DNA of 64,000 bases from Dictyostelium discoideum (lineage: Eukaryota): NCBI GenBank assembly GCA_000004695.1, contig CM000152.2, positions 1-64,000 of the forward strand, written 5' to 3'. Positions 22,082-25,453 of the stretch are shown one piece after another. The stretch's first letter is position 1. Each line of letters starts with the position of its first letter. The notes under the pieces are model-generated. The model searched no databases, was not told the origin of the DNA, and saw nothing but the letters and a program-made list of their open reading frames with translations. The position numbers were made by a program, and so were the translations under genes.

Positions 22082-25000
22082 ATGGAGAATGAACAAGAAT
22101 ATTTCTATCAAGGGGCAGTATCTTGTTTACCAAAAGTTTTACCATCTAAAAAAAAATTAGAGAGTTTAAATAATGCCACTACAACCACTACAACTACACC
22201 ATCTATTAAATCTAATACAACAACTCCACCGATAACTCCAAATAATAATAATAATAACGCCACCACTACCACTTCAACAACTACAGCAACAACATCTACA
22301 ACAACAACAACAACAACTACAACACCTACCAAACCAACTAAAGAAATTATTGATTCATCATCAGCAAACAATACACCAAAATTAACATCAACACATATAT
22401 TAAATAGTAAGAATATTAACAATTCAATAGATTTAACCGCATCACTACCAACCGACACAACACCACCACCACCACAAACTAAAGACTCATTATTATCAAT
22501 GTTAACAAAATCGTCATCAATTTCATTGGATAGTAATAATAATAATAATAATAATAATAATAATAATAATAATAATAATAATAATAATAATAATAATAAT
22601 AATAATAATAATAATAATAATAATAATAATAATAATAATAATAATAATAATAATAATAATAATAATAATAATAATAATAATAATAATAATAATAATAATA
22701 ATAATAATAATAATAGTTTTAATAAAGAAAATAGTGAAATAATTAAAGATGAAATATCAATTAAATTAAATACAGTTAAAGAGAATGAAGAATTAAAGAA
22801 ATTTTTAGAGAAAAGAGTACAGAATTCATTTAAAGATTTTAAACCACGTACACATCAATGGGATACAATTGTATCGGTATTAAAGGATTTAATATCACCA
22901 CAACATATGAAATCATTCAAGAGTGAAAACCGATACAATTATTTGATTCAACATGCTGCAGGTTCTGGTAAATCTTTGACCATTGCTTGTTTAGTCTACT
23001 TTTTATATAAACTAGAGATAAATAATAAACATAAATTTGATACCATTGTCATTATGAACGATAGAAGTCAATTGGATGCTCAGTTGGGTGATGTAGTCAT
23101 TAAATTCTTAACAAGTAATGGTATTACCAATTTTTGTAGACCAAAATCATCAAAACAATTACAAAATGAAATTTTAAGTGGTAAAAATAGGGTTGTAATT
23201 ACAACTATGCAAAAGTTTTCACAATTATTACCAAATAAGAGTGGTGGTGGTGGTGACGATCATGATAATGACGATGACGATGATGATGGTCATCATGATG
23301 GTTATGCTAACTCTAAAGGTAAAAAGAAAAAGAAAAATAATGAAGATGATAACCAATTCTCATTTAAATCAAATTCAGTTGCAATCATTTCAGATGAAGC
23401 TCATAGATCACATGGTAAATCTACAACAGAGAAATTACATGAATTTCTTAGTGGTAATACAAGACAAAGTAGTAAGATTACATATTTTAGTTTTACATGT
23501 ACACCAACAACTCAATGTTTGGAAATGTTTGGTATAGCTTCAAAAGGTGATAAAATTCCTTTCTATACTTACTCTATGCATAATGCTTTAGAAGATAAAT
23601 TGATTTTAGATGTAATTAAACAATTTTCAACTTTAAGATTAAATGAAGTTAATGTAGATTCATTTCAACAATATCAACAAAATTTATTACAATTTCATCA
23701 ACAACAACAACAACAACAACAACAACGACCACAACAATATAATGAAGAAGCTTATGGTTATAGTAATAGTGTTTATGGTGGTAATAATGGTTATAAAAAT
23801 AATAATAATAATAATAATTGTTTTTTAAATGGTATTGATTTTGATGATGATCAATATGAAGATGAAACTATTCAAGATCAAATGTTAATAAAAACTAAAG
23901 CACAATTTATAATTAATCATTTATTGTATACAAAGAATAAACATGATAATAAATTATTTAAGAGTAGAGCAATGTTGGTTTGTTCAGGCAGAAAGGGATT
24001 ACTTATTTATAAGAAATATTTAGATCAATTGATTTCACAATTACCAATCGAGGAACAATTTGATTCAATCGCAGCATTTTCACCATTCATCCAAGAGGGT
24101 AAAAGTATGGTTGAATCGGATCCAATGATCAATGGTAAATATGCTCCCTATGGTACTGATAAGAATAGAGGCATCATTAAGGCATTGAATGACGATAAAC
24201 AATTCAACATTAGATTATTGATTGTCGCCGATAAATTACAAACTGGTTTCGATGAACCTTCCCTATCGATAATGTATGTCGACAAGAAATTAAAAGGTGC
24301 AAACGCTGTACAAACCCTTTCACGTTTATCTCGTATCTCCAAAGATAAAGAAGCAACAGCCATCATTGATTTTGTCAATACTGAAAAAGATATGGATTTC
24401 ATTTTCAATCTATATAAACATTCAACTAGTTTAAGAGATTTACAAGATACTCAAACTTTAATTTCAAGTTTAATAATGGCTGGTAGATCCATTCAAAAAG
24501 TTTTTGAAAAAGAAAAAAGAGCAGGTTTAATAACTCCATTTTGTAAGGCAATTTTATTTCATGAACAACAACAACAACAACAACAACAACAACAACAACA
24601 ACAACAACAACAACAACAACAACAACAACAACAACAACAACAACAACAACAACAACAACAACAACAACAACAACAACAACAACAACAACAACAACAACAA
24701 CAACAACAACAACAACAACAAAATAGTAATGATTCACCACCATCATCTTCAGATTTAACAAATGAATATGTTCAAGTTGAGCAATATATTGATGAATTCC
24801 TTTATATTCATTCAAAATTGGTTGCAAGAAATCAATTACCAGATAATCTTCAAAGTCCAATCTCTTTTAAAACAGTTCAAACAATTAAATCAACATTGGA
24901 TTCTTTAAGATTGGAAAAGAGTAGAAATTCATCTTTACTCACTTCCTCTAATAAATTGGTTAAAATTAAATTAGATTATTTAACAGATGAAGAAACTAAA

Positions 25001-25453
25001 TCAACAATTGAATATTCTCAAAGTAATGTAGACTATGATGCAGATTTCGCTCAATCAATGTGGGCTTCAAATAAAGGATTTGATAAAACCAACGGTGGTG
25101 GTGGTGATGATAATGATGCTGATGAAAGTGAAGGAGAAACAAAAGAGAAAATCTTAAAAGAAATGACTGAAAAATTAAAACAAATTCAAAAATTAGGTTC
25201 ATCAAATTCCTCATCATTTTCATCTTCAAATAGTGTCTATCAAACAAATTTCTTTGATATACCACCAACAAGTAAAAGTAGTTTCATTAATACTACCACA
25301 TCACAAAATCAAACAACAACAAATGCTCCTGAAAATTTTAAAAAAGCAAGTATTTGGTCAATCGCAAGAGGTGCCAATCAATTAAAAAGAGCAAATCAAA
25401 CAACTCCATCTTTTCAACCAAATTTCTCTCAAAATAAGAAACCAAAATCTTGA
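22082..25453 (+). CDS. SF2 helicase/ATPase resembling the type I restriction-enzyme R subunit (HsdR) motor domain
   Basis: ATG at 22082 (MENEQEYFYQG); the track start at 21908 is upstream read-through. Motif I LIQHAAGSGKSLTIACLVYF, motif II VAIISDEAHRSHG, motif III FSFTCTPT, the HsdR-typical FYTYSMHNALEDKLILDV, and motif V-VI LIVADKLQTGFDEPSLSIMYVDKKLKGANAVQTLSRLSRI. The N-terminus is Thr/Asn low complexity. Long (AAT)n and (CAA)n tracts lie inside the ORF. Confidence 0.8.
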   Translation: MENEQEYFYQGAVSCLPKVLPSKKKLESLNNATTTTTTTPSIKSNTTTPPITPNNNNNNATTTTSTTTATTSTTTTTTTTTPTKPTKEIIDSSSANNTPKLTSTHILNSKNINNSIDLTASLPTDTTPPPPQTKDSLLSMLTKSSSISLDSNNNNNNNNNNNNNNNNNNNNNNNNNNNNNNNNNNNNNNNNNNNNNNNNNNNNNNNNNNNNSFNKENSEIIKDEISIKLNTVKENEELKKFLEKRVQNSFKDFKPRTHQWDTIVSVLKDLISPQHMKSFKSENRYNYLIQHAAGSGKSLTIACLVYFLYKLEINNKHKFDTIVIMNDRSQLDAQLGDVVIKFLTSNGITNFCRPKSSKQLQNEILSGKNRVVITTMQKFSQLLPNKSGGGGDDHDNDDDDDDGHHDGYANSKGKKKKKNNEDDNQFSFKSNSVAIISDEAHRSHGKSTTEKLHEFLSGNTRQSSKITYFSFTCTPTTQCLEMFGIASKGDKIPFYTYSMHNALEDKLILDVIKQFSTLRLNEVNVDSFQQYQQNLLQFHQQQQQQQQQRPQQYNEEAYGYSNSVYGGNNGYKNNNNNNNCFLNGIDFDDDQYEDETIQDQMLIKTKAQFIINHLLYTKNKHDNKLFKSRAMLVCSGRKGLLIYKKYLDQLISQLPIEEQFDSIAAFSPFIQEGKSMVESDPMINGKYAPYGTDKNRGIIKALNDDKQFNIRLLIVADKLQTGFDEPSLSIMYVDKKLKGANAVQTLSRLSRISKDKEATAIIDFVNTEKDMDFIFNLYKHSTSLRDLQDTQTLISSLIMAGRSIQKVFEKEKRAGLITPFCKAILFHEQQQQQQQQQQQQQQQQQQQQQQQQQQQQQQQQQQQQQQQQQQQQQQQQQQQQNSNDSPPSSSDLTNEYVQVEQYIDEFLYIHSKLVARNQLPDNLQSPISFKTVQTIKSTLDSLRLEKSRNSSLLTSSNKLVKIKLDYLTDEETKSTIEYSQSNVDYDADFAQSMWASNKGFDKTNGGGGDDNDADESEGETKEKILKEMTEKLKQIQKLGSSNSSSFSSSNSVYQTNFFDIPPTSKSSFINTTTSQNQTTTNAPENFKKASIWSIARGANQLKRANQTTPSFQPNFSQNKKPKS

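Follow-up and report, generated by a model that had tools for sequence, protein, structure and literature searches.

A nuclease-less HsdR-derived SF2 ATPase conserved across Amoebozoa

A gene at 22082-25453 on the forward strand of a 64,000-nucleotide (nt) stretch of Dictyostelium discoideum DNA (contig CM000152.2, positions 1 to 64,000; here called the window) encodes an HsdR-derived, nuclease-less ATPase of superfamily 2 (SF2), a relative of the R subunit (HsdR) of type I restriction enzymes. The gene is a single uninterrupted open reading frame (ORF) of 1123 codons plus a stop codon by translation. Its product belongs to a nuclease-less HsdR-like family that is conserved across Amoebozoa, and the gene itself has a host-like composition and sits among ordinary host genes. 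We consider it probable that the family represents a type I restriction motor that was acquired once, in ancient times, and domesticated Amoebozoa-wide as a nuclear double-stranded DNA (dsDNA) translocase recruited by other proteins.

HsdR identity of the motor

Type I R subunits were the sole specific relatives of the window protein by Pfam, NCBIfam, PADLOC, PDB sequence search, and Foldseek. Three Pfam models matched the protein, namely, SWI2_SNF2 (PF18766; E = 8.7e-28), ResIII (PF04851; E = 8.8e-17), and T1R_D3-like (PF22679; E = 4.3e-14, above that model's cutoff of 27 bits), and the same three models also matched every bacterial HsdR recovered in our homology searches. The generic DEAD model (PF00270) scored lower than these HsdR-type models, at 42.6 bits. 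The NCBIfam model for hsdR (TIGR00348) matched at 8.5e-36 with 123.7 bits, which is under its curated cutoff of 284.55, and in PADLOC the REase_I models alone matched (1.1e-32). When the low-complexity insertions were removed, the PDB sequence search returned EcoR124I HsdR alone, with residues 302-439 and 646-710 aligning. Matches of the full-length protein to SAP30, nucleoporins, and Snf5 were discarded because they were poly-N/poly-Q matches only.

Structural comparison gave the same answer. An AlphaFold2 model, for which an alignment of 58 sequences was the input, was confident over residues 225-385, 425-545, 595-865, and 890-950, and a Foldseek search with this model placed EcoR124I HsdR at all of ranks 1 to 14, with RadD and LlaBIII, a type ISP enzyme, next in order. 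DEAD-box structures ranked below these three, and an ISW1 structure came up only at rank 50. The proposal that the helicase core is specifically HsdR-like, which had been made from the sequence alone (the sequence-only reading), is therefore upheld by the PDB search, the top 14 Foldseek ranks, and the REase_I matches.

That proposal was built on blocks regarded as diagnostic of HsdR, and a motif search found all of them (DEAHRS, FTCTPT, FYTYSMHNALEDKLILDV, and QTLSRLSR) at the places quoted. The motifs of the window protein align to the bacterial HsdR consensus blocks NYLIQHSAGSGKS, DEAHSSQGG, FAFTATP, PFHLYSMxQAIEEGFILDVL, QTGFDxPLLxTMYVDKKLxGVNAVQTLSRLNR, and LDFxN, and the motor blocks of the two are nearly identical. 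In motor domain 2, Q744, R748, and R751 are invariant alignment columns. Since helicase motifs I to VI are intact and nearly invariant over the family, their sequences argue for an active enzyme under long-term constraint.

Relative to HsdR (EcoR124I, PDB 2W00; TIGR00348), the window protein has in common the two RecA-like domains, the motif set, and the family-specific blocks, and its domains follow in the same order, from ResIII/SWI2_SNF2 through T1R_D3-like to a helical domain. Only the first part of this helical domain, which in HsdR forms the coupling to the methyltransferase core, is recognizable, however: in an hhalign comparison of the eukaryotic and bacterial C-terminal regions, the first ~85 columns aligned (probability, 87.6%; E = 3.5e-6), and the rest was not alignable. 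The window protein also differs from HsdR in its long low-complexity insertions, in the eukaryotic adaptor modules of its relatives, and in the setting of its gene, which is eukaryotic, monocistronic, and nuclear, with no HsdM or HsdS gene among the large ORFs of the window.

A further difference is the lack of the N-terminal PD-(D/E)xK nuclease. HSDR_N (PF04313), which the bacterial relatives do have, was not found by Pfam in the full protein at E ≤ 1 or in its N-terminal 151 amino acids (aa) at E ≤ 10, and aa 1-218 are predicted to be disordered (AlphaFold2 predicted local distance difference test [pLDDT] score of <50). In the Entamoeba orthologs, only ~25 aa precede the motor, and there is therefore no room for a nuclease there. 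The sequence-only reading had likewise seen no nuclease, and the Pfam check that it had named recovered ResIII and not HSDR_N; the (AAT)n and (CAA)n tracts and the Thr/Asn-rich N terminus that it had described are also real (Table 1). No N6_Mtase, HsdM_N, or Methylase_S domain was found by Pfam in the 20 window ORFs of at least 300 aa. Given its missing nuclease, its TIGR00348 score, and the lack of HsdM and HsdS among these ORFs, the window protein is not a genuine HsdR restriction subunit.

Two bacterial matches, from Polaromonas (P0060) and Pelatocladus (P0091), were considered as nuclease-less donors and rejected, since each is part of a split HsdR gene with an HSDR_N ORF directly upstream and HsdM and HsdS alongside. 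Because the apparently nuclease-less bacterial matches are split HsdR genes, the closest prokaryotic relatives of the family are true type I restriction subunits. The division of hsdR into an HSDR_N gene and a motor gene was observed at 7090-10178 of a Polaromonas sp. locus (L001; CP087963.1) and at 5418-10184 of a cyanobacterial locus (L002), and in the latter, three small opposite-strand ORFs lie between the two halves.

Distribution and origin of the family

In a single-sequence search with the window protein, eukaryotic proteins ranked first, and bacterial HsdRs followed at ~32% identity. The eukaryotic matches were from Acytostelium (61% identity), Heterostelium, and three Entamoeba species (~37%), and several metagenomic proteins with Surp or SAM domains were also recovered. 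A profile of eukaryotic sequences added Cavenderia, Polysphondylium violaceum, Tieghemostelium, and Pelomyxa; cluster look-ups named transcriptome-derived members from Synstelium, Pyxidicula, Thecamoeba, Mastigella, Echinamoeba, and Mastigamoeba; and the final search added a member from Balamuthia. Named members span Dictyostelia, Archamoebae, Tubulinea, and Discosea, which are all four of the amoebozoan groups sampled, with ortholog identities of 54 to 62% in six other dictyostelids and 34 to 41% across Amoebozoa. In the profile search, the named eukaryotic members scored at least 436 bits versus 404 bits for the best bacterial HsdR, a gap that blurred somewhat when divergent environmental members were included. 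No further large group emerged when 1.84 billion representatives were scanned exhaustively with HMMER, and a BFVD search gave no close viral relative, only generic SF2 helicases at ≤15% identity.

The family can be recognized by the signature NYLIQHxxGSGKS, DEAHRSHG, YFSFTxTP, and ADKLQTGFDEP...VQTLxRLxR...VDFxN, together with the lack of HSDR_N and a place in the eukaryotic clade of the trees, and the window protein fits this description in full (family alignments A2 and A3). The database names of members, "helicase domain-containing protein" and "type III restriction enzyme, res subunit," are automatic. Metagenomic members lie in eukaryotic gene contexts, and since several other members come from transcriptome assemblies, members of the family are expressed.

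No named member from outside Amoebozoa was recovered in these searches, except for one protein of Schistocerca gregaria. This protein (XP_049848085, "type I restriction enzyme HindI endonuclease subunit-like") belongs to the amoebozoan family and is encoded at 113085-137795 of scaffold JAKZLS010000121.1 (assembly GCA_023897955.2; L009), which is unplaced, 218 kb long, and has one gene per 2 to 3 kb and a G+C content of 0.49 to 0.59. One gene per 2 to 3 kb seems too dense for a locust genome, and the scaffold is therefore probably that of a contaminating protist rather than of the insect.

In neighbor-joining trees (Kimura-corrected distances, 100 bootstraps), the bipartition between eukaryotic sequences and bacterial HsdRs was recovered in 100/100 bootstraps (26 versus 70 sequences), and it was again recovered in 100/100 bootstraps in a larger tree of 33 eukaryotic and 72 bacterial sequences. 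This separation suggests one ancient bacterial acquisition, and the simplest reading appears to be a single such event followed by mostly vertical descent. The internal topology loosely tracks the amoebozoan groups, and the window protein is the sister of the P. violaceum ortholog. The G+C content of the gene (~0.25) is like that of the remainder of the AT-rich window (0.18 to 0.33), which contains coding repeats of the dictyostelid type. The sequence-only reading had put forward an ancient bacterial acquisition or a little-studied eukaryotic HsdR-like family, to be checked by orthologs in other dictyostelids and by phylogeny; both checks agree with such a family, now found in four amoebozoan groups as a clade apart from bacterial HsdRs, and are consistent with its ancient acquisition.

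Dictyostelids also have a second, longer paralog, of 1632 aa in P. violaceum (KAF2069682.1; P0226) and 1487 aa in Tieghemostelium lacteum (KYQ93880.1; P0227), in which a Surp module comes after the same nuclease-less motor. Short and long copies grouped as one clade in 82/100 bootstraps, which places the duplication within Dictyostelia or at its base. Judged by its sequence, the window gene is the short paralog, without the Surp and Armadillo-type (ARM) modules of the long one, and its source genome probably has the long paralog as well.

Eukaryotic ATPases derived from restriction-modification (R-M) systems have already been described, namely, the SWI2/SNF2 remodelers, including Strawberry Notch and HARP, and MORC (Aravind et al. 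2012, PMC3417536). The theme is the same here, in that eukaryotes acquired a bacterial R-M DNA motor, which lost its restriction activity and was joined to nuclear adaptors, but the window family is of the HsdR lineage proper rather than of the Snf2 or GHKL lineage, and its named members are from Amoebozoa only. We found no paper on a derivative of HsdR proper in Amoebozoa or any eukaryote, and PMC3417536 does not mention one. The general idea of R-M donation is published, whereas the amoebozoan HsdR-derived family is so far undescribed in the literature that we found. R-M systems are thought to have given eukaryotes the chromatin motors Snf2 and MORC, and the family would be a very clear extra case, adding, if our reading is true, a further independent R-M motor to the eukaryotic nuclear machinery. 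Its value would be that of a clean, testable example; the principle itself is not new.

Adaptor modules and proposed role

Several relatives of the window protein carry additional domains. Surp was found above the Pfam cutoff in the long dictyostelid paralogs (P0226 and P0227) and in P0004; ARM repeats were found in the Balamuthia protein and, weakly and under the Pfam cutoff, in P0226; and a SAM domain was found in P0016 and P0128 (Echinamoeba). In three environmental eukaryotic proteins (P0233, encoded at 5970-9494 of locus L010; P0237; and P0361), the motor is fused to TFIIS N-terminal (Med26-type) and TFIIS central domains, with no TFIIS zinc ribbon, and Pfam did not detect HSDR_N in the TFIIS fusion protein P0237. 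Both Surp and TFIIS modules serve in protein-protein interactions, within the splicing machinery and the RNA polymerase II (Pol II) elongation machinery. The C-terminal 243 aa of the window protein gave no Surp or other domain in Pfam at E ≤ 10. A pattern downstream of motif VI, [DE]x[DE]FAxxxW, is present in the short and long dictyostelid paralogs, P0004, P0129, and P0228, where it lies between the helical domain and the adaptor modules.

If the family is indeed a domesticated restriction motor, as we propose, then what the protein has retained of HsdR would be both RecA-like SF2 domains and the beginning of the helical domain, with low-complexity sequence replacing the PD-(D/E)xK nuclease. 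By analogy with HsdR, ATP hydrolysis would drive translocation along intact dsDNA without cutting it. Bacterial HsdR is loaded by the HsdM2S1 methyltransferase, in whose place protein partners would recruit the amoebozoan motor, with the helical domain, the acidic-aromatic DFAxxxW motif, and the basic tail as candidate recruitment surfaces. The basic tail is possibly a nuclear localization signal. In view of the Surp, ARM, SAM, or TFIIS-N plus TFIIS-M modules of its relatives, the motor would most likely act at nuclear transcription or co-transcriptional RNA-processing complexes, where it might, for example, push or clear Pol II or other DNA-bound proteins. The Pol II-associated proteins CSB/Rad26 and TTF2 and the bacterial Mfd and RadD offer a functional analogy, since they are nuclease-free SF2 dsDNA translocases that adaptors bring to a stalled or elongating machine, and RadD is also the next-best structural match to the window model after HsdR; the homology of these proteins to the family is, however, limited to the general SF2 fold. 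By the same analogy, the fusion of TFIIS-N and TFIIS-M to the motor of some relatives hints at docking on Pol II. A more specific scenario, which we put forward tentatively and hold to be on balance doubtful, is that the ancestor of Amoebozoa (>1 billion years ago, as a rough estimate) captured a type I translocase that shed its nuclease and loader and was rewired through Surp/ARM/SAM/TFIIS-type adaptors into a Pol II- or spliceosome-associated translocase.

Several points weigh against the proposed protein-recruited translocase. The window protein carries no adaptor of the Surp, ARM, or TFIIS type, so that the link to transcription would be drawn from paralogs and from distant, partly environmental relatives, and the link of the family to Pol II from analogy; the carriers of the TFIIS fusions are known only as environmental eukaryotes. 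HsdR on its own, with no loader present, shows little activity, and here the loader is only a proposed protein partner. The trees are all neighbor-joining trees with long branches, and the direction and date of the transfer are read from the distribution of the family rather than from a rooted maximum-likelihood analysis. The source species of the window and its nearest relatives are not among the homology search matches, which bears on copy number.

We think it unlikely that the protein is still a defense enzyme, in which a nuclease and/or methyltransferase from another gene would join the motor in restricting foreign DNA, for example, from giant viruses or ingested bacteria. Its descent from a restriction enzyme and its exclusive PADLOC matches to REase_I models would suit such a role, bacteria do tolerate a split between HSDR_N and motor genes, and amoebae meet foreign DNA constantly. 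However, neither the protein nor the window ORFs of at least 300 aa contain a nuclease, N6_Mtase, or Methylase_S domain; the modules fused in relatives (Surp, TFIIS, ARM, and SAM) are housekeeping nuclear modules rather than defense modules; and the BFVD search found no close viral relative. Moreover, the conservation of the family over Amoebozoa looks slow and vertical, whereas defense genes are usually patchy and fast.

We similarly doubt that the motor has been converted from a duplex-DNA translocase into a helicase for RNA or RNA-DNA hybrids that serves splicing or R-loop removal. The Surp modules of several family members are typical of splicing factors, the generic DEAD model does match, and DEAD-box proteins and Dicer-type helicases are among the lower Foldseek matches. 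Yet dsDNA translocases lead both the sequence and the structure matches (HsdR in front, then RadD and type ISP LlaBIII), the motor blocks have stayed nearly identical to the bacterial HsdR consensus, the Helicase_C, HA2, and OB modules of DExH RNA helicases were not found by Pfam, and Surp was not found in the window protein itself.

It is very improbable that the gene is a functionless decaying relic or an artifact, whether pseudogenized, recently inserted from bacteria, or brought in by contamination of the assembly. Very long homopolymeric insertions do break up its domains, and an exact look-up of the window protein in the gene-position collection gave no record; nevertheless, the insertions map to regions predicted to be loops or disordered, the 1123-codon ORF keeps all catalytic motifs and matches the host in composition and in the kind of genes beside it, and orthologs persist both in the six other dictyostelids and across Amoebozoa at the identities given above. 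Hardly credible at all is a superficial HsdR likeness in a conventional eukaryotic SF2 protein (Snf2/Rad54 or DDX/DHX), for which only the name of the best-scoring Pfam model, SWI2_SNF2, speaks, since that model matches every bacterial HsdR found too, SNF2-rel_dom (PF00176; E = 0.062 in an Entamoeba ortholog) and Helicase_C (PF00271) do not match the window protein, the T1R_D3-like domain and HsdR-specific blocks are present, and none of the Pfam, PDB (HsdR alone), and Foldseek searches gave Snf2, Rad54, DDX, or DHX as the best match.

The family still has an identity of ~30% to present-day HsdRs, so that the state from which it started is known in its structure and mechanism from EcoR124I; Dictyostelium is genetically tractable, and the family has two dictyostelid paralogs. 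The family would also be a natural experiment in which a loader-dependent motor has been retargeted through swaps of adaptor modules. Should the link to transcription or RNA processing be true, Amoebozoa, among them the pathogens Entamoeba and Balamuthia, would have a lineage-specific part in their Pol II or spliceosome machinery that humans lack; should the link be false, the gene would still encode a well-delimited, conserved orphan ATPase.

Gene structure and neighborhood

The list of ORFs gives a longer frame that begins at 21908, whose extra part is poly-Phe from an upstream T-run. We accepted the ATG at 22082 and the stop codon because both the YFYQGAVSCLPKVLPSKKK motif near the N terminus and the basic tail at the C terminus recur in dictyostelid orthologs. 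The YFYQGAVSCLPKVLPSKKK motif (aa 7-25) is kept at the N termini of the Cavenderia, Polysphondylium violaceum, and Tieghemostelium proteins and of EukProt protein P0123 (P0121-P0124). The features of the gene are listed in Table 1.

Table 1. Features of the HsdR-like gene, in window coordinates
Feature	Position	Strand	Residues	Basis and remarks
Coding sequence of the nuclease-less HsdR-like SF2 ATPase	22082..25453	+	1123 aa + stop	Complete, single exon; ORF translation; ortholog alignments span the protein from its N-terminal motif to its C-terminal tail
N-terminal Thr/Asn-rich region	22082..22735	+	1-218	Sits where HsdR has its nuclease; pLDDT <50; no Pfam family above threshold even at E ≤ 10
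ACN Thr-rich tract	22271-22329	+		Repeat scan
(AAT)n tract encoding ~60 Asn	22530..22715	+		TRF: period 3, 62 copies, 98% matches
RecA-like motor domain 1 (ResIII/SWI2_SNF2)	22838..23689	+	253-536	Pfam PF18766 and PF04851; AlphaFold2 confident
Walker A, GSGKS	22961-22975	+	294	Motif search
Acidic/basic low-complexity insertion GGGGDDHDNDDDDDD...KKKKK in a domain 1 loop	23234..23356	+	385-425	pLDDT <50; missing from non-dictyostelid homologs
DEAHRS	23393-23410	+	438	Motif search
Motif III, FTCTPT	23492-23509	+	471	Motif search
HsdR block FYTYSMHNALEDKLILDV	23561-23614	+	494	Motif search
Gln/Asn-rich insertion between the RecA-like domains	23690..23866	+	537-595	pLDDT <50 at aa 546-595; variable in alignment; TRF
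(CAA)n tract within the Gln/Asn-rich insertion	23699-23737	+		TRF
RecA-like motor domain 2 (T1R_D3-like)	23867..24391	+	596-770	Pfam PF22679; aligns to EcoR124I HsdR 646-710
Motif V, LQTGFDEP	24236-24259	+	719	Motif search
Motif VI, QTLSRLSR	24311-24334	+	744	Motif search
C-terminal helical domain	24422..24931	+	781-950	AlphaFold2 helices 790-866 and 890-950; split by the 53-Gln tract
(CAA)n tract encoding 53 Gln	24564-24721	+		TRF, 52.7 copies
Acidic-aromatic motif NVDYDADFAQSMWA, candidate partner-binding peptide	25025..25066	+	982-995	Pattern [DE]x[DE]FAxxxW recurs in relatives
Basic C-terminal tail FKKASIWS...KRANQ...KKPKS	25337..25450	+	1086-1123	Alike in Heterostelium, P. violaceum, and Tieghemostelium orthologs

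The neighbors of the gene in the window are ordinary nuclear genes, encoding a Myb protein, a SWIRM-JAB protein, PARG, SHMT, phospholipase D, and INTS6, together with a long terminal repeat (LTR) retroelement. Just upstream, on the reverse strand, lie a gene for a SWIRM plus JAB/MPN protein with the architecture of a MYSM1-like histone deubiquitinase (16340-18364) and one for a Myb/SANT protein with SPIQQ repeats (19296-21157). Both are chromatin-type genes, and eukaryotic gene order gives no reason to tie either of them to the helicase. The retroelement, at 4154-9601 on the forward strand, consists of LTR retrotransposon-type ORFs with reverse transcriptase, RNase H, integrase core, and chromodomain. 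On the reverse strand, a PIF1-like helicase at 12156-14409 is divided into two ORFs, N-terminal (13408-14409) and C-terminal (12156-13121), and the gap of ~290 bp between them could be an intron or a disruption.

Just downstream of the helicase gene is a perfect inverted repeat, with two arms of 328 nt (27152-27479 and 28403-28730) that are 100% complementary and separated by a spacer of 923 nt. It may be either a recent inverted duplication or an assembly artifact. One arm lies within a forward-strand ORF (27564-29204) and the other reaches into the ORF at 26113-27156 at its 3' end, so that both strands encode one and the same peptide of ~65 aa.

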